Virus record (IMG/VR): IMGVR_UViG_3300045988_117477
Location: 33,725 to 97,724 of that record
DNA from: a virus
Direction: 5' to 3' (one strand)
Length of the DNA: 64,000 nucleotides
A model generated the notes under the pieces. It worked only from the letters and a program-made list of their open reading frames with translations, was not told where the DNA came from and made no database searches. A program made the translations under genes and the position numbers. Numbering within the stretch: the first letter of the stretch is position 1; the number at the start of each line of letters is the position of its first letter. Shown piece by piece: positions 11,370-45,665 of the stretch.

Positions 11370-12014
11370 GTGGTTAGAATCGCATATTTAGGAACCGATG
11401 GCTGTCCTGGTCATCACGTTATTCCAATACGAGGTAAATTTACGGAAGAGGATATTAAGGTAATAGAATCTATAGATTGTGATGATTTCTATAAGGTGTT
11501 TGATGTCATGCGTTTTAAGATAGCTGAGTTTAAAGGATGGACGATATTGGGAATCCCGGCAAGCTTAGACGATCATAGACCTGGAAGCAAAACCGTTATC
11601 TTCATAGAGGGTAAAGCTAACGAAGCTGATTTTATAGAAGTCATACAAGAGTATTCTTTTCTTAAAAATAAGGTAAAGAATCTTACCGAATTGTATCATG
11701 ATGCAGAATGGTTTGCGACTGGTAAATTGAATCAAGATCCGCCTAATAAGGAACAGTTTCAATTTGCGTTAGACAAGGATGATATTATTAACATGATTAG
11801 GGGAGTCGATTTAGAACCTTATTCTGATGTGGCGAATGAAATGGAGAAAATAGGATTGGGATCATCATCTGATTCTTCATATGAGGGTCCCACATGGTCT
11901 TGGTTTGTTAACAAAGTAGATCTTTGGCAGAAGAATAATGTATGGGATGGTTTTTCTGCTGAGTTCTTATGGGATTTGTATTGTAGGATAAAGAAAGCAG
12001 GTGATTATATATAA
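11370..12014 (+). CDS. Hypothetical protein.
   Basis: 214 aa ORF. Confidence 0.4.
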   Translation: MVRIAYLGTDGCPGHHVIPIRGKFTEEDIKVIESIDCDDFYKVFDVMRFKIAEFKGWTILGIPASLDDHRPGSKTVIFIEGKANEADFIEVIQEYSFLKNKVKNLTELYHDAEWFATGKLNQDPPNKEQFQFALDKDDIINMIRGVDLEPYSDVANEMEKIGLGSSSDSSYEGPTWSWFVNKVDLWQKNNVWDGFSAEFLWDLYCRIKKAGDYI

Positions 12015-13334
12015 TTTTACACTAAAAAATAGTATATAAATAGGTATTTGTAAATATTCTATTTATATTTGCGCTATGTATTTAGTGGAACAACATATAA
12101 TTACCATTAACGATAATAGGTATAAAGATTTAGATCGAATATGTTTCTTATCCAAAAACCTGTACAATGCAGCCTTGTATATAATAAAACAGGAGTTCCT
12201 TAGTACAGGTAAATGGATAAGATCAGGAGAGCTTAACAAAAGAATGGTGACTGAAGATAACATAGATTATAGAGCAATGAGTGGATCATCTTCTCAGCAG
12301 ATTCTTATGGCTTTAGATAAGAACCTAAAATCTTATTTCTCTGCTATCAAAGCATGGAAGCGCGACAATAAGAAATTTACAGGATGCCCTAAATTTCCAA
12401 GATATAAACATAAAACAAAAGGTAGGAATGTGTTTTCCTACTCTTACGCACAGTTTAGACATAAAGGAAATTTTATCCATTTTCCTAAAAAAGAAGGACT
12501 ATCTCCTTTAAAAACAAACTGTAAAGAAGGAACTGTGAAGCAGGTAAGATTTGTTCCTAAGCCGGATTGTTATGTTATAGAGGTGGTATATGAATCAGCT
12601 TGTAAGGACCAACTCAATGATAACAACAAAGTCATGGCTATTGACTTAGGAGTTAATAATCTTGCCTCTATATCTACTAATGTGGACAATAAGTCTATTC
12701 TGATAGATGGCAGAAGGCTGAAATCCATCAATCAGTATTATAATAAGAAAAGATCGAAAATTCAACAACAACTAAAGAAGGTAAATGGGAAAGAAAATTC
12801 GAGACGGCTAATGTCTCTTACAAGAAAGAGAAACAACAAAGTGAAGGACTATCTTCACAAGGCAAGTAAAGAAATAATCAATACTTGTATAGAAAAAGAT
12901 ATAACAACATTGATAGTTGGGCATAACGATGGATGGAAACAAAAGGTTAAATTAGGGAAAAGAAATAATCAAAATTTTGTTTCAATCCCATTTGAGATGT
13001 TTATATCGATGTTAAGGTATAAATCAGAAAGACAAGGACTAAGGTTTGTTGAAGTAAACGAATCTCACACGTCAAAATGCAGTTCTTTCGATTTAGAGAA
13101 AATATGTCATCATGAAACTTATGTTGGTAAAAGGATAAGGAGAGGACTATTTAAAACAAAAGAAGGAGTTCTTATTAATGCTGATATCAATGGAAGTTAT
13201 AACATCATGAGAAAAGTAAAAGGGGATGCAATAATGCCACCCTATACAGGGTTCGGGTATAACCCGGTTAAGAAATTTATTAACTAATTGTACAGGTGTA
13301 AACTTGTATATAATTACTAGATGTAGTTAGAGTA
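12015..13334 (+). mobile_element. IS200/IS605-family tnpB-only (IS1341-like, non-autonomous) element. Boundaries are approximate.
   Basis: A TnpB gene precisely fills the gap between two intact phage ORFs. No Y1 TnpA anywhere in the window. Confidence 0.45.
12076..13287 (+). CDS. tnpB: TnpB-like RNA-guided endonuclease (OrfB_IS605 / RuvC-like).
   Basis: N-terminus NLYNAALY. RuvC-I IDLGVNNLASIS. RuvC-II VEVNESHTSKCS. RuvC-III INADINGSYNIMRK. Zn-finger region C..CHH. Confidence 0.8.
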   Translation: MYLVEQHIITINDNRYKDLDRICFLSKNLYNAALYIIKQEFLSTGKWIRSGELNKRMVTEDNIDYRAMSGSSSQQILMALDKNLKSYFSAIKAWKRDNKKFTGCPKFPRYKHKTKGRNVFSYSYAQFRHKGNFIHFPKKEGLSPLKTNCKEGTVKQVRFVPKPDCYVIEVVYESACKDQLNDNNKVMAIDLGVNNLASISTNVDNKSILIDGRRLKSINQYYNKKRSKIQQQLKKVNGKENSRRLMSLTRKRNNKVKDYLHKASKEIINTCIEKDITTLIVGHNDGWKQKVKLGKRNNQNFVSIPFEMFISMLRYKSERQGLRFVEVNESHTSKCSSFDLEKICHHETYVGKRIRRGLFKTKEGVLINADINGSYNIMRKVKGDAIMPPYTGFGYNPVKKFIN

Positions 13335-14795: not shown

Positions 14796-15146
14796 ATGGG
14801 ATTTATAATCAAAAAGTCAATCACTTATAATATGATGGACGGCAATCAGTTAGAGTATGTATTTGACAACATTAATTTAGATCATATCACATTTGAAGGT
14901 AATGGTAAAGAACCTTTTTCATTTAACAGAGCCCTTGTTGAAAATTTAATTGAGACATTTGAAACTATGCATGATATATATTCCGATAATTGCAAGCTTA
15001 AGGTTTATACTGGTAATTGCATAATTCAATTGAGCGCAGATTCAAAGGACTTAAGTGAATCCTTTTTTGACGTATATGATAGAGATGAGATGAAAATGAT
15101 ATATAGTATACACAATAGTATCTTGAAAGAAATGCTTATCATATGA
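14796..15146 (+). CDS. Hypothetical protein.
   Basis: 116 aa ORF. Confidence 0.35.
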   Translation: MGFIIKKSITYNMMDGNQLEYVFDNINLDHITFEGNGKEPFSFNRALVENLIETFETMHDIYSDNCKLKVYTGNCIIQLSADSKDLSESFFDVYDRDEMKMIYSIHNSILKEMLII

Positions 15147-40236: not shown

Positions 40237-40735
40237 TTATTTCAATAATTAATCTACCTCTTTCTTTAATCATTCCCCTGTTTTCCATATCCAGTACCTT
40301 CTTTACCGCATACTTCCACACAAAAGGAAATTCTGTTTCAAGTTTATCAAATTCCATCCTGTCAAGATACATGTCGAATACCGTATGCTCCGATTCATGT
40401 AGGAAAACTATATTATCCCTGCAAGTAGCAACCGACTTATATAACCTTTTCGGAAGTATGTGACATACGTTACATACTGTAGGAAAATGAATAGCCTTAC
40501 CGGTCATAGACATTCGAATAGTACTCAACTCCTCCAACATAAGACGAAAAAACCCGGATAAATCCGGGTTCTCTAACTTTTTCTTCTTGCTGCTGTTTTT
40601 AATGGATGTAATTCTGTCTTTTTTCTTCGGAGTCAACTCTTTGCTCCTGCAAGCCTGGCATAAGCCATGACTTCTTATCATTACTTTTCGTCCGCATTTT
40701 TCGCAGACGTATAGCTTCTTTTCCTTGCTTTCCAT
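40211..40735 (-). CDS. Zinc-ribbon protein.
   Basis: CEKCGRKV...CQACRSKE. Confidence 0.35.
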   Translation of the reverse strand: MESKEKKLYVCEKCGRKVMIRSHGLCQACRSKELTPKKKDRITSIKNSSKKKKLENPDLSGFFRLMLEELSTIRMSMTGKAIHFPTVCNVCHILPKRLYKSVATCRDNIVFLHESEHTVFDMYLDRMEFDKLETEFPFVWKYAVKKVLDMENRGMIKERGRLIIEIIDRYEKTL

Positions 40736-40920
40736 TCGAATAATAATGATATTATTGAAAAGAATAATCCCGCTGAAGCCAGTAGATAAGGTACGTTCAT
40801 TAATAATTTAGATACCTCGTCTGTCTTAATCACTATCAGAAGGAAAGCGCCTGCTGAAAGCAATGATATTATCGCCACAACAAGCGCTATGTTGGAAACT
40901 ACATCAGCCTTACTCTTCAC
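40681..40920 (-). CDS. Small membrane protein (two transmembrane helices).
   Basis: Hydrophobic stretches IALVVAIISLLSAGAFLLIVI and LLASAGLFFSIISLLF. Confidence 0.35.
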   Translation of the reverse strand: MKSKADVVSNIALVVAIISLLSAGAFLLIVIKTDEVSKLLMNVPYLLASAGLFFSIISLLFEWKARKRSYTSAKNADEK

Positions 40921-41407
40921 TCTTCTTCTCGCCTAATTTTTCAGCTCCCTTCTGAAGATCGTATTTAAACACTTCAATGATTTTCGTTTCCACAATAGAC
41001 TCGCAATTCCAGTCTCCTAACGTACCCTGCATACCTTTAGTCAACACAGCCTCAGCGTCTTTCGGATTGCCGGCCTGGATATACATATAGCATGGAGTTT
41101 TCTTTTCTTTACCTTTCTTTTCATCCAGTGTAATGTAATTCACCTTACACTTATACCAGTACTCAGCTTCTCCGTTGAAAAAGATTTCCGACACTTTAAT
41201 AGGATTAATTTTTACAACCTCGAAAGAATTGTACAAATCCTTAAAGATCTCCAACGATCTTGATTCTGCCTCTGTGTAAGACAAGGCATCTACCAAATAC
41301 TTTTCAGTTACTTTCTTTTTTTTGCCGTTCTCGATATTATCAATCTCGGCTTTTACTGTGATTTCAAACCAACGATTCATGTCTATATTTTTATTCAAAT
41401 TAATCAA
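40910..41407 (-). CDS. Hypothetical protein.
   Basis: 165 aa ORF. Confidence 0.35.
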   Translation of the reverse strand: MINLNKNIDMNRWFEITVKAEIDNIENGKKKKVTEKYLVDALSYTEAESRSLEIFKDLYNSFEVVKINPIKVSEIFFNGEAEYWYKCKVNYITLDEKKGKEKKTPCYMYIQAGNPKDAEAVLTKGMQGTLGDWNCESIVETKIIEVFKYDLQKGAEKLGEKKSEE

Positions 41408-42630
41408 TCCATTTCCTTTTGTACCATAAAGCGTTTACACCTTGATAATTTCAATTTCTTGTATGTAATATCTCTTTGGTTTTTACCATCAATATCTCGA
41501 ATATTAAAACTACCGGTTTTACGCCTTGCAAATATAAAGTAATAACTGTTTTCAAACATAACCCTATCAAACAATCGGAAACCAAAAACTTCAAAAGGAG
41601 ATTGATTTGGTCTTTTTATCCCTCCTTTTGGAATCTTTTGTTTATGGATCTGACGATTATGTCTTCTTACTAATCTTACTTTATAATAATAACCTAACCT
41701 TATAGCATCAAAGTTTTTAGAAATAACAAAAGCATCTGAAACATGAGATTTTTCAATACCATGTTTAATCCTATTGTATTTTGTAACATAACCGAAAGTC
41801 ATAGAAATGTTGTCGTATTTAGATTTTAGTTCTTCATACAATCTCCATTTCATTATTCCCATTACGGCTGCGTCGCGAAGCGACGATCCCCGTTTGATCT
41901 TTAAATCTATATTACCTTTATGGTATTCTTTATGACAAGTTTCACATAAGGTAATAAGATTAGATGGGGAATCTCCACCTGTCTTTCGTGATTCAATATG
42001 ATGAACATTCAATACTGGGTCTTTTGACTTTCCCTTACAATGCTGGCATTTATGTCCATCTCTTGCTAAAACATATTCCCTAACGTTCCAAAATCCAAGT
42101 TGATCACCCTCCTGATATTCTTTACCTGATATATTAGGATTGTTAATCTTTTGAGTATCAAATTGAGCTACTTCGATAACAATACGAGATATTGGTAATA
42201 TAGAACATACATTGTCAATAACACGAATATGGGCGTCTACTTTGTATTTCACCGAAGGTGCTACCCATCCCGGACGCTTACTTTTTATTCTATTATCAAA
42301 ACGAGGTTTTCTATATCTCAATCTATTTCGTCTTGATCTTCGTAGCTCCCTTCTGGTAGACAAAAGATCTACAATATCATTTCTAAGGATTACTTCACTA
42401 CTGTAAAGTTCTTTGCTTTTCGTTGTAGCCGATAAACCAACATGTTTAGTACCAGCATCAACGCCTAACACAATTTCTTGTTTGTAATCAGATGTTACGT
42501 ACATTAATTTGATGGTAAACGGACATAGGTTTACAACGACTGCTTTGTTTGATTTGAGCAGTCTCCTAACCTTTCCATGTCTTGTTGTTGGCATCATAGG
42601 TTTACCATTTATGTCTTGTACGTACACCAT
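41404..42630 (-). CDS. iscB: IscB, an OMEGA-family RNA-guided nuclease (PLMP, split RuvC, bridge helix, HNH).
   Basis: PLMP-like KPMMPTTRHGKVRRLL. RuvC-I GVDAGTKHVGLS. Arg-rich bridge RRELRRSRRNRLRYRKPR. RuvC-II IVIEVAQFD. HNH CQHCKG...NVHHIESRKTGGDSPSNLITLCETCH. RuvC-III KSHVSDAFVI. Confidence 0.85.
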   Translation of the reverse strand: MVYVQDINGKPMMPTTRHGKVRRLLKSNKAVVVNLCPFTIKLMYVTSDYKQEIVLGVDAGTKHVGLSATTKSKELYSSEVILRNDIVDLLSTRRELRRSRRNRLRYRKPRFDNRIKSKRPGWVAPSVKYKVDAHIRVIDNVCSILPISRIVIEVAQFDTQKINNPNISGKEYQEGDQLGFWNVREYVLARDGHKCQHCKGKSKDPVLNVHHIESRKTGGDSPSNLITLCETCHKEYHKGNIDLKIKRGSSLRDAAVMGIMKWRLYEELKSKYDNISMTFGYVTKYNRIKHGIEKSHVSDAFVISKNFDAIRLGYYYKVRLVRRHNRQIHKQKIPKGGIKRPNQSPFEVFGFRLFDRVMFENSYYFIFARRKTGSFNIRDIDGKNQRDITYKKLKLSRCKRFMVQKEMD

Positions 42631-43090
42631 ATCTACAAACGTTTTTAATGTTTATTCAACATAAGTCAGAGTAAAAACTCTGTTAGTACCCATCGCCAAT
42701 GTTATTTAAGGTTTTTTTGTAAGCAACACTATAGCTCGAATACAACCATTGTTTAATCACTTACCTTAGAGCTACAGACTTGGGTAAACATCCGTAGGTA
42801 ACTATATATTCTCAAATAACGTAGTGTTTATTTCAACACTTAGGCTAATAATCGGAATAGCTTTTGGCTATTATACATAATACGATACAAATTGTTTATG
42901 ATTTGTATGAGTTATGTATTATTCTCGATTATTTACTATCGTGGCCACGAAATACTTACACCCCTCTAAGTGCGTCAGGGCTTCAATCATAGCTTCTTTT
43001 ATCTCTTTTTCTTCCATTCTGTTTGTTTTTTTGGACAAAGATATGTCTTTTGATAATAAAAAAGATTCAAAATGATTTAATTTAGCTTAA
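42631..43090 (-). ncRNA. Candidate IscB omega-RNA (guide plus scaffold) in the 460-bp non-coding region directly upstream of iscB.
   Basis: Largest ORF-free interval in the - block. IscB omega-RNAs are encoded immediately 5' of iscB on the same strand. Structure not verified. Confidence 0.35.
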
Positions 43091-43534
43091 TTACTGCTCT
43101 TTTGATTCGTCCGGTATAGGCATGTCAAACTTTTTTCTGATAAACGACTCTGTTTCTTCATTGAATGGATAGGCTTCCTTAATAAAATTCATAGCTACCT
43201 CCATATCACCGTCTGCTATATCTTTATACCTTTCAAAGATACCAACCAGGTCATTGTTATATGAACGCTCTTGTTTTATGTTGTACACGTATTTCAACAC
43301 CCTGTCTTTAATTTCATTGGCTTTTTTCACGGTGTCATTGAAGGTATTTATACTTGTCAATTCAGGGTTTTTATTTTTCTCATCTATCTTATCAAACTCT
43401 TCCTTGCTATATCCTGTTTCTCCTTTAACAGCCGGGCAAACACCCTCCTTCATGATCCAAAACTGTTCATACGATCCTGCCAGATATCTCGATTCTGTTT
43501 TAAATGCATTATACTTGACAAGCAAATTAGCCAC
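43091..43534 (-). CDS. Hypothetical protein between the iscB and tnpB loci. Not a TnpA.
   Basis: 147 aa ORF with no HUH / catalytic Tyr motif. Confidence 0.35.
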   Translation of the reverse strand: MANLLVKYNAFKTESRYLAGSYEQFWIMKEGVCPAVKGETGYSKEEFDKIDEKNKNPELTSINTFNDTVKKANEIKDRVLKYVYNIKQERSYNNDLVGIFERYKDIADGDMEVAMNFIKEAYPFNEETESFIRKKFDMPIPDESKEQ

Positions 43535-43600
43535 CTCAGTTGCACCTCCTATGGTTCTAAAACCGATGCCGATATCTTTTAACTTGACACACTCCCATCG

Positions 43601-44776
43601 CTAAAGCAAATGGGATTCTTGGATACAAACGCAAGAAACCCCGATATTGCTATCGCTGGAATTACTCTTGCTCTCCAATTCGGAAATGCCCTTCCGAAGT
43701 ATATTACGGGCTGCAAGAACATCACGGTCGTTTACCGCTCCGCACGACGGGCATACCCACGTGCGGTCGCGTAACGACAGTCCTTTATTAATGCAGCCAC
43801 ATTCGCAAGTTTTGGAAGAAGGATACCATTTGTCAATCTTGTGTACTATCACTCCATACTTTGAAGCAACATACGTAAGTTTGTCAATAAAAGAAGAGTG
43901 ACTGAGATCGGAAACCTTCTTTCCCCACAAACGTTTCATTCCTTCAATGTTTAGATCTTCAATAAAAATATAATCATATTGTTTGCATAACTGGTGTGCT
44001 AATCCCCATTGAAAATCCGATCGAAGATCGTTTATTTTACGATACGTTTGTTGGAGTTCAAACAGTCTCCTTCTTCTATTGTTGGATCCTTTCTTTGCAT
44101 TAGAAAGCCGTTTGTTTAATTTTCTAATCTTGTTTTGATATTGTTTGAAGAATAGTGGAGAATCGATTTTGCTACCATCGCTTTTAGTTAGATAAGTTTT
44201 CAGGCCAAAATCCAACCCTATAGATGCACCATCATGTGTCTTTCTATAAGAGTTTATAAGATTATGATCTGTAATAATTATCAGGCTATATCGATAGCAT
44301 GTTTCTCTAACTATTCTAATTTGTTTAACATTACCTTCGTAGACTCTACTGTATGAAAATCTAAATCGTTTCTTCCCTTTGTTAATTGTTAAACAATTAC
44401 CATTCAGGGTAAACCCACCTTGTTTGAATACAAAAGAATTGAATTTTTCCGGTGATTTAAACTTAGGAGGTCGTTTAGCCAATTTCTTAAAGAAACGATT
44501 ATAAGATTCATCAAGACGTTCAAGTATTTCTTGCACTGTTTGGGAATGAAGAAGATTTCTTTTTATCCTTTTTGCAAAATGCTTTTTCATTTTACTAACT
44601 GAGATATATTTTCCAAACAGTTTGTAGTATCTACGTTGTAGAGCTAAAGCATGATTCCATACAAAACAACATTCTCGAAGCATTTTGTCGAGATACTTCG
44701 TTTTCTTGGAATGATAGATGTTGTATTTGTATGAAATCATTTTTTTTATCTGTAATTTTGATTCAAAATTAATCAA
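43601..44776 (-). CDS. tnpB: TnpB-like RNA-guided endonuclease (IS200/IS605 OrfB family).
   Basis: RuvC-I IGLDFGLKTY. RuvC-II FIEDLNIEGMKR. Zn finger CECGC...CPSCG. RuvC-III NDRDVLAARNI. Confidence 0.8.
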   Translation of the reverse strand: MINFESKLQIKKMISYKYNIYHSKKTKYLDKMLRECCFVWNHALALQRRYYKLFGKYISVSKMKKHFAKRIKRNLLHSQTVQEILERLDESYNRFFKKLAKRPPKFKSPEKFNSFVFKQGGFTLNGNCLTINKGKKRFRFSYSRVYEGNVKQIRIVRETCYRYSLIIITDHNLINSYRKTHDGASIGLDFGLKTYLTKSDGSKIDSPLFFKQYQNKIRKLNKRLSNAKKGSNNRRRRLFELQQTYRKINDLRSDFQWGLAHQLCKQYDYIFIEDLNIEGMKRLWGKKVSDLSHSSFIDKLTYVASKYGVIVHKIDKWYPSSKTCECGCINKGLSLRDRTWVCPSCGAVNDRDVLAARNILRKGISELESKSNSSDSNIGVSCVCIQESHLL

Positions 44777-44816
44777 ACCAATTCATCCACCTTCTAAAGT
44801 ATGGTGGTTTTGTTGG

Positions 44817-45002
44817 TTAAATAATCATAAATACCGGAACTCCAGTTCTTGGATACACGACTTCTTTTTTGTTCTTTATATTCCAGTTTTTAGCTTCAAT
44901 TGGAATACCTTTATTAGCAAGCTCTTTGTCTATATACAGACTTATGTCTTCGTCTGTCAATGCCACAATCTCATCTCTGCTTAAATCAAAAACTGTTTTC
45001 AT
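44817..45002 (-). CDS. Hypothetical small protein.
   Basis: 61 aa ORF. Confidence 0.3.
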   Translation of the reverse strand: MKTVFDLSRDEIVALTDEDISLYIDKELANKGIPIEAKNWNIKNKKEVVYPRTGVPVFMII

Positions 45003-45202
45003 TTTTCTTTATTTATTAAATTAAACAACTTACTTCTTTGTTCAGGCTCCGTATATTCTACCCATATATCGGCCGCCACATTTCTAAGAAATTCCATAAA
45101 GTCTTGATGATCCCTGTATTCAGCAGAATCAACTTTTCTCACAAAACTTAGAATTTCCTTTAACATCTTATTGTTTTCTTCAAGAAGTTCTCTGTCGGTC
45201 AT
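44999..45202 (-). CDS. Hypothetical small protein.
   Basis: 67 aa ORF. Confidence 0.3.
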   Translation of the reverse strand: MTDRELLEENNKMLKEILSFVRKVDSAEYRDHQDFMEFLRNVAADIWVEYTEPEQRSKLFNLINKEK

Positions 45203-45221
45203 AACCTTTCATATTTTCTTC

Positions 45222-45665
45222 TTAACTCATTTTTACCCATTTGGCATTATCAGGTATTAAATCCTTAAATTCTTCTGGGATTTTCCCTTGATGCCACCAA
45301 TCATTGGAAATGATTTTTCTCCCATCATTTGAAATAGCCTCCATCATTCTTCCTCCCATACCCATGAATCTTCGTGTTTTGTTGTTTGTATTGGGAACAA
45401 ACGGATTAGCTATCCATGATTCTCCATCTATAATCAACCAATTGGGATTATTCTTATTCTCTTCATATAGTCTGATCCAAAACGCACAAGAATAGCAAAC
45501 TCCATCTCGTTCCATAATAGACCGTATAGGACATTTACAAAAATGTTCTGGATTCATGCTATGTATATTATTTTGCCCCGACCCATCTTCGCAGCCGCAT
45601 TTGGGACATATTTTCTTCTTTTCGCTTTCCATATTGCTTATGCTGTTTTTAAGGTAATAGATCAT
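45222..45665 (-). CDS. Zinc-ribbon protein, paralog of 22759..23247.
   Basis: CPKCG, IRSIMERDGVCYSCAFW, IDGESWI, GGRMM, FKDLIPDNAKW shared with the 22759 ORF. Confidence 0.5.
   Translation of the reverse strand: MIYYLKNSISNMESEKKKICPKCGCEDGSGQNNIHSMNPEHFCKCPIRSIMERDGVCYSCAFWIRLYEENKNNPNWLIIDGESWIANPFVPNTNNKTRRFMGMGGRMMEAISNDGRKIISNDWWHQGKIPEEFKDLIPDNAKWVKMS

Follow-up and report, generated by a model that had tools for sequence, protein, structure and literature searches.

We have analysed a 64,000-nt stretch of viral DNA (IMGVR_UViG_3300045988_117477, positions 33,725-97,724; called the window below, and the source of every coordinate that carries no prefix) in which a tnpB gene lies near an iscB gene. 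The initial annotation of this DNA had reported a TnpB-like gene at 43601..44776 on the minus strand with an intact RuvC triad and a zinc finger, about 970 bp from iscB; Pfam and an alignment with the TnpB of ISDra2 agree with this description, and the tnpB stop and the iscB start are 970 bp apart, with both genes in the same orientation. The tnpB gene forms part of a 1243-bp element (44826..43584, minus strand) of the IS200/IS605 type without tnpA, which splits a hypothetical phage gene encoding 222 amino acids (aa). The features of the element and of the split gene, including the left end (LE), the right end (RE), the open reading frames (ORFs) and the transposon-associated motif (TAM), are as follows.

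44817..45002, minus strand: 5' fragment of the 222-aa gene, a 61-aa ORF of 59 native codons followed by two codons and a TAA that the LE contributes
44827..44830, minus strand: TTAT target and predicted TAM tetranucleotide (host sequence) beside the LE, constant in 26/26 class I flank variants
44741..44826, minus strand: LE, starting GATTATTTAACC; boundary from the csAssE-Sib empty site and 80 related copies
44811-44808, minus strand: LE guide tetranucleotide AAAA, directly before the hairpin foot
44807-44803 / 44791-44787, minus strand: LE subterminal hairpin (CCACC / GGTGG), 19 nt from the cleavage site, from a DNA fold
43601..44740, minus strand: tnpB coding sequence, 379 aa plus TAG
43584..43723, minus strand: predicted guide-RNA (omegaRNA/reRNA) scaffold, six helices, overlapping the 3' end of tnpB
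43723-19/43590-86; 43698-91/43686-79; 43678-74/43623-19, minus strand: scaffold helices 1-3
43671-65/43637-31; 43659-52/43645-39; 43615-06/43601-43593, minus strand: scaffold helices 4-6
43584..43615, minus strand: RE, hairpin CCCATTTGC-TTTA-GCGATGGG, then AGTGTGTCAA
43587-43584, minus strand: RE cleavage tetranucleotide TCAA; homology of copies ends exactly after TCAA
43568..43583, minus strand: predicted guide, the flank directly 3' of the RE, GTTAAAAGATATCGGC...
43091..43582, minus strand: 3' fragment of the 222-aa gene, codons 60-222

Boundaries, ends and target of the element

A scan of IMG/VR returned 325 TnpB relatives, the best 80 of which (89-99% protein identity, mostly on phage contigs of ~150 kb) were examined; with 80 IscB loci (L085-L164) some 160 IMG/VR loci were compared overall, and L-numbers denote individual loci. 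The main element-free reference was the gut phage csAssE-Sib (OR575929.1, 151 kb; locus L001), which is collinear with the window at ~95% identity and is without both the TnpB and the IscB element. At the insertion site its coding strand reads ...CCAGTATTTAT|GTTAAAAGATGTCGGC and that of the window ...GGTATTTAT|GATTATTTAACC...[tnpB]...GTGTGTCAA|GTTAAAAGATATCGGC; the filled allele is ...TTAT|G-element-TCAA|GTTAAAAG and the empty allele ...TTAT|GTTAAAAG, the TTAT being kept in the empty alleles (...TATTTAT|GTTAAAAG). Insertion occurred immediately 3' of TTAT and left no target duplication, and the element lacks terminal inverted repeats. The junction, TTAY | G...TCAA | flank, is established by five independent empty alleles, and the homology of relatives to the window ends precisely at both element boundaries. 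A target TTATG with an element starting at A was considered and rejected, because the five independent empty sites hold one G and not two; the window sites 14807 and 15008, which read TTAT and then A, also contradict it.

In IS608 a 4-nt guide adjoining the hairpin foot (AAAG for TTAC) reads the left tetranucleotide, which is 19 nt 5' of that foot, and the right hairpin is followed after ~10 nt by the right site TCAA (PMC3201880). The window element is laid out in the same way, with LE cleavage 19 nt from a hairpin that has a 4-nt guide beside it, and with an RE hairpin followed by 10 nt finishing in TCAA. Subterminal hairpins had been anticipated at the 3' end, and the RE hairpin both folds and covaries among copies (in L026, L032, L082, L083 and L084). 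The tnpB stop TAG (43603-43601) straddles the junction within this hairpin, its T and A lying in the loop and its G being the first base of the 3' arm; the sequence TTTAG at the loop/3'-stem is conserved even in relatives with 57% identity.

Two LE classes were found, class I (including the window copy) with TTAT in 26/26 flank variants and class II with TTAC in 6/6. The LE guide tracks the target, being AAAA with TTAT in class I and AAAG with TTAC in class II and in the autonomous relatives described below, so that a single G->A difference in the guide corresponds to a C->T difference in the target. A TTAC-like target had been proposed earlier; for the window copy the tetranucleotide is TTAT, and TTAC is used by the sister class II. 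On the right side TCAA ends nearly all copies; in about a dozen exceptions the last base has changed, giving TCAT in L013, L036, L061, L062 and the L019 group and TCAC in L026. The L019 group comprises copies at one site (L019, L024, L029 and L032-L034) with a degenerate class II LE from which the hairpin has been lost, the flank ...TTGC and an RE mutated to TCAT; these copies retain an intact 379-codon tnpB and look like immobilised copies that keep the nuclease.

The element is a non-autonomous (tnpA-less) member of the IS200/IS605 family with IS608-like ends. It shares with IS608 and the elements of the IS605 group the lack of terminal inverted repeats and of target duplication, the insertion 3' of a tetranucleotide, the spacing of the LE cleavage site, the TCAA a few nt past the RE hairpin and the position of tnpB beside the RE. 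It differs from IS608 in the lack of tnpA, in the use of TTAT (guide AAAA) in place of TTAC (guide AAAG), and in its residence in a virulent-looking gut phage of ~150 kb. The element itself is a textbook tnpA-less IS200/IS605 element, and phage TnpB proteins are already common enough to have a PHROG family of their own.

The gene that was split is represented in csAssE-Sib by WOZ57363.1 (L001 7732-8400), and the small ORFs at 43091-43534 and 44817-45002 should be annotated as halves of this one gene. The first of these, a 147-aa ORF with a GTG start, had been suspected of being interrupted, and the comparison places it within the 3' remnant. The 3' fragment lies in the tnpB frame, with TAG (43601-43603) as the only stop between them; this shared frame is probably due to chance (1 in 3). 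Readthrough of the TAG into the host remnant by a suppressor tRNA or recoding was considered and rejected, there being no tRNA genes in the window. No Pfam or PHROG family was found for the intact 222-aa protein or for the 86-aa gene that the IscB element interrupts.

The nuclease and its predicted guide RNA

The longest tnpB ORF (43601-44776, minus strand) begins with TTG at 44776; translation probably starts at the ATG at 44740, a codon conserved in every element class, to give 379 aa. The ORF matched Cas12f1-like_TNB (3.6e-20) and OrfB_IS605 (8e-18) in Pfam, HTH_OrfB_IS605 weakly (7.3e-4; 19.4 bits, under the Pfam cut-off of 21 bits), and PHROG 506 'transposase' at 3.5e-92, and could be aligned end to end with ISDra2 TnpB (8H1J; 4e-30). 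By this alignment the RuvC triad is D177 (GLDFG), E261 (FIEDL) and D340 (NDRD) and is intact, and the zinc finger is C312xC...C330xxC (CECGC...CPSCG). The 379 codons are kept in 76/79 related copies, the other three being truncated, and a dN/dS of 0.05-0.12 between the window copy and copies at other sites indicates that the protein is evolving under strong purifying selection. From its family TnpB is predicted to be an RNA-guided, TAM-dependent nuclease making double-strand breaks in DNA; the intact catalytic residues, the purifying selection and the naturally occurring empty alleles with TTAT and a guide match speak for this indirectly. A pattern-based search of 185,579 species-representative bacterial genomes found a single 57%-identical relative, in a metagenome-assembled genome (MAG) of Candidatus Cryptobacteroides, and because this was the only one the close TnpB family appears to be essentially phage-borne.

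The guide-RNA scaffold was derived from an alignment of 58 distinct copies, including a 75%-identical fecal scaffold, Parabacteroides phage PF672P2 and the Cryptobacteroides MAG. In this alignment 98.8% of cells are paired and compensatory changes were found in 19/40 pairs, where shuffling gave 5.8±1.3 and controls with slid partners 1-4; the single-sequence fold gave z = -2.3. Covariation thus supports a structured RNA that overlaps the 3' end of tnpB and the RE, with a predicted role as guide RNA. The 27-aa C-terminal tail of TnpB is the translation of the guide-RNA region, and in PF672P2, where the tnpB ORF stops earlier, the RNA sequence is still conserved. The initial annotation had already suggested that the tail reads into an RE/reRNA region at 43450-43700; the overlap is real, and the region, including the guide, is 43723-43568, with the RE ending at 43584, so that the earlier estimate extends too far into host sequence.

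The predicted guide runs from 43583 downward and coincides with codon 60 onward of the disrupted host gene; its predicted target 3' of the TTAT TAM is GTTAAAAGATATCGGCATCG. In L028, L068, L085, L088, L090, L092 and L094 the site is empty and TTAT is followed by 20 nt that match the guide perfectly, and three further empty loci match the guide with a single mismatch. The 284 bp beside the right end exist as two haplotypes ~13% apart, each of which is found both filled and empty. This fits excision or homing, and ordinary recombination could also have produced it. The window is highly mosaic at 43300-43583 and at 40400-41420, where in pairwise comparisons of close relatives neighbouring blocks of 200-600 bp alternate between ~99% and ~77-87% identity, and in place of the block 45232-45650, with its 147-aa zinc-finger ORF, csAssE-Sib carries other genes.

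Two groups of TnpB systems offer a comparison, that of ISDra2, in which TnpB acts with an omegaRNA (reRNA) and which was reportedly described by Karvelis in 2021, and the ISGst elements of Geobacillus. In both, as here, a TnpB of ~380-410 aa has the RuvC triad and a zinc finger, a structured RNA lies over the tnpB 3' end with a guide taken from the right flank, the TAM is the transposon target (predicted to be so here), and most family members are without tnpA and have to be mobilised in trans. The window element differs from them in its protein sequence (~25-30% identity), its TAM (TTAT versus TTGAT or TTTAA-type) and an RNA that matches no Rfam model.

Proposed mobilisation and homing, and the competing explanations

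A transposase source exists among the relatives of the element. On scaffold MT839900 (MT839900.1, L083) tblastn identified a TnpA with 43% identity to that of IS608 beside a 75%-identical tnpB, and 17 near-identical autonomous copies (L165-L180 and L187) lie on IMG/VR phage contigs of 10.5-157 kb, 14 of them >80 kb. This autonomous relative is 1671 bp long, is bounded by TTAC and TCAA at no fewer than 8 sites (>=8), and encodes a Y1 HUH TnpA of 132 aa (HVH...YIENQ) whose gene is divergent from tnpB, as in IS605, whereas the two are co-directional in IS608. Its LE reads TTAC|GATTTTATCCAAAG followed by a CCCCTC hairpin and its RE finishes ...GTCAA; the flanks of the autonomous copies match parts of the window at 74-83% identity. 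By comparison with it the window element is a tnpA-deleted derivative that would need such a transposase in trans.

The reading that we favour, with a probability of about 0.8, is that the tnpA-less element, with an intact TnpB and guide RNA, is mobilised in trans by TnpA and spread by RNA-guided homing. The element would have reached its site by single-strand 'peel-and-paste' transposition at TTAT, with TnpA acting in trans. TnpB and its guide RNA (guide from the right flank, GUUAAAAGAUAUCGGC...) would then cut element-free alleles having TTAT and the matching target, which would arise after excision or come from co-infecting phage genomes, and recombinational repair would copy the element back into the cut allele. 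Transposition and retention through TnpB cleavage and repair have been demonstrated for ISDra2 and the ISGst elements (Meers 2023; PMC10055086), and 'non-restorative homing' of a transposon has been proposed for phages (PMC13565253). The proposed process resembles the 'intronless homing' of the free-standing Seg and Mob endonucleases of T4-like phages, in that the nuclease could cut the allele without the element in a co-infecting relative, into which the element would then be copied by recombinational repair, and in the patchy occurrence among close relatives with mosaic flanks. It differs in that recognition would be by a guide RNA and TAM and not by protein, that new sites need a transposase, and that homing itself is here a prediction.

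Several observations weigh against this reading. No TnpA was found in the 64-kb window, by Pfam on 79 ORFs or by tblastn with IS608 TnpA (a query verified against PDB 2A6M), in agreement with the earlier statement that no Y1 transposase is near; the 2.5-3 kb beside the 160 TnpB and IscB loci likewise contained none. A regular-expression scan for HUH/Y1 motifs also gave no matches and was superseded by the Pfam and tblastn searches. With no TnpA nearby, the window copy may not be mobile at present, and the TTAC-type autonomous TnpA may or may not act on a TTAT-type LE. Rfam models found no match to the guide RNA (43000-45300, E up to 5). The structural steps follow from the sequence comparison, and for expression, the TAM of the nuclease, cleavage and homing we infer from the characterised systems. 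Finally, the filled/empty polymorphism on both haplotypes could have come from ordinary phage recombination. The element is cleanly delimited, its class is already known, and it is probably active.

A tnpB that has been domesticated and is vertically inherited, as an RNA-guided weapon against competitors or a TldR-like regulator, would explain the strong purifying selection on TnpB and the presence of nearly the whole close family on phage contigs (one 57% relative in 185,579 genomes), and the cutting of element-free relatives would automatically harm competitors. We regard this as improbable, given that at one and the same site the element is present in some phages and absent from others, with clean transposon junctions, and that copies lie at many TTAT sites, often within genes; the competitive benefit is compatible with selfish homing and is no alternative to it. 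A regulator of the TldR type was specifically rejected, as the catalytic triad, unlike that of TldR, and both transposon ends are intact.

Less probable still is the proposal that the two nuclease genes belong to a single composite or nested element, or that the site is a specific hotspot for IS200/605 insertion. In its favour the two nucleases lie close together in the same orientation, and other TnpB-family copies lie within a few kb of the site in L005, L028 and L068. The features on the iscB side are as follows.

41381..42930, minus strand: IscB element (HEARO RNA and iscB), approximate ends
41404-42630, minus strand: iscB, Pfam RRXRR 9e-61 and HNH 4e-9
42682-42874, minus strand: HEARO RNA upstream of iscB, Rfam RF02033, 105.5 bits (gathering score 83)
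42919..43017, minus strand: truncated remnant of an 86-aa phage gene interrupted by the IscB element, 29 native codons (compared with L001 7403-7663 and L002)

Between the nucleases lie the 147-aa ORF, which had been thought the only one there, and also the truncated remnant of the 86-aa gene and the HEARO RNA. The IscB element stands in place of 144 bp of the empty alleles and ends directly before the ATG (41380) of a DUF4494 gene. That both nucleases are insertions, as had been supposed, is borne out by sharp indel boundaries against csAssE-Sib and many IMG/VR relatives, and the shared gene order without such boundaries that vertical inheritance would leave was not what the comparison showed. 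The TnpB and IscB elements are separated by ~650 bp of host sequence and each has its own conserved ends. Both are present in the window and L086; L002 and L003 have the TnpB element only, with the 144 bp at the IscB site uninterrupted; 15 IscB loci have IscB only, with the TnpB site empty; and L001, L005, L028 and L068 have neither. Because every combination of the two is thus seen among related phages, they are independent insertions, and the idea of a nested or composite element is not supported.

Nor did we find evidence that the site is a special hotspot. Across the 80 loci, copies of the TnpB family sit at 23 distinct left-flank sites, in addition to that of the window itself; they are scattered genome-wide and map near ~3.6, 6.0, 11.6, 14.8, 23.3, 29.2, 43.6, 45-50 and 57-62 kb of the window. 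For the IscB family at least 20 distinct sites were counted. The window holds four sites that are unoccupied here and filled elsewhere, namely 29225 (L004), 23263/23264 (L063/64), 14807 and 15008 (L008/16/23), and 11635 and 11822 (L007/21/56); each reads TTAT or TTAC followed by the guide sequence of the other phage. The 41-45 kb interval looks like a run of small dispensable genes.

Marginally less credible again is an inert, decaying relic without activity: the window has no transposase and some relatives have decayed (the L019 group and the three truncated ORFs), yet the window copy is the family consensus at both ends and has a full-length ORF with its catalytic residues, and the guide-RNA fold has been kept by compensatory changes. 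An IStron-like element spliced from the mRNA so that the 222-aa gene stays functional can practically be set aside, for, despite its position inside a gene in sense orientation with tnpB in frame with the downstream fragment, no group I intron or other Rfam match was found at 43000-45300 (E up to 5), the non-coding ends of 86 nt before tnpB and 17 nt after it leave no room for a ribozyme, and the length of 1243 is not divisible by 3.

Guide-side deletions and neighbouring elements

Copies with a common left flank often have right (guide-side) flanks of different extent, owing to nested deletions of 12-350 bp, of which nine cases were identified by comparison with longer alleles (L003, L008/16/23, L007/21/56, L011, L013, L036, L048/50, L043/41 and L080/77). 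The retained flank starts directly after TTAT or TTAC in 7/9, the remaining two having ATAT or CTAC there (binomial p ~4e-12), and with each deletion the guide becomes a sequence that stands next to a TAM in wild-type genomes. The window segments 14808-15008 and 11636-11822 are undeleted versions of such sites. The deletions could have been produced by a one-ended transposase reaction or by recombination between copies at neighbouring sites. A pristine insertion of the L008 type, which would separate transposase-mediated from recombination-mediated deletion, was not found by exact match. Exact-pattern scans likewise returned no empty alleles of the L015 and L007 types, the latter being explained later by a 187-bp flank deletion, and a literature search on 'adjacent deletion' with IS608/TnpA found no paper. 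It is conceivable, and in our view rather doubtful, that the OMEGA elements (those of obligate mobile element-guided activity) of this clade, two TnpB families and the IscB family, are all RNA-guided homing elements moving between co-infecting phages, whose guides would be re-programmed by transposase-catalysed, one-ended deletions to the next downstream TTAT/TTAC and not by ordinary recombination, with the window copy as a 'pristine' member.

The value of the system lies in the natural experiment that it provides, with filled and empty alleles having perfect guide matches, all combinations with IscB, a transposase-bearing relative, and two end classes in which the target, TTAT or TTAC, tracks a single base of the LE guide. 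It is suited to asking whether RNA-guided homing takes place between co-infecting phages, whether a point change in the LE retargets both TnpA and TnpB, and whether TAM-ending guide-side deletions are a regular route of guide change.

The IscB family shows a pattern of its own. About 60 of the 80 IscB loci share the end ...TTGATTAATTTGAATAAAAATATAGAC immediately before an ATG, and 19 are without that end. At ~13 of 20 distinct flanks this ATG opens a long host ORF (82-824 codons), and at four further flanks it abuts an apparent tRNA gene; judging from these flanks the family seems to target, or to supply, gene start codons in the same orientation. On the guide (HEARO) side the flank deletions vary at one site (42931-43017): measured against IscB-free alleles, the window is without 144 bp of the 86-aa gene, L085 is without a further ~28 nt, and L087, L091, L093 and L097-99 are without a further ~82 nt. 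These guide-side deletions have no endpoint motif that we could define.

A third OMEGA nuclease of the window is a 403-aa TnpB at 12076-13287 on the plus strand, in an element at roughly 11998-13318. It matched OrfB_IS605 (6.5e-25), TNB (2.4e-12) and PHROG 506, has no obvious CxxC pair, and is only 24% identical to the 379-aa TnpB. The ~1.3-kb block that contains it follows TTTTAC at 12015-12020, and ~48 nt are found in its place in L007, L021 and L056. Among the ORFs at 263-37724 Pfam further detected, as domains not tied to individual ORFs, a Thoeris anti-defence Tad2-like domain (3e-11), a dATP/dGTP diphosphohydrolase N-terminal domain, Bro-N/ANT, SPFH/flotillin, WDGH and PD-(D/E)XK domains, and helicases of the DnaB and SNF2 types.

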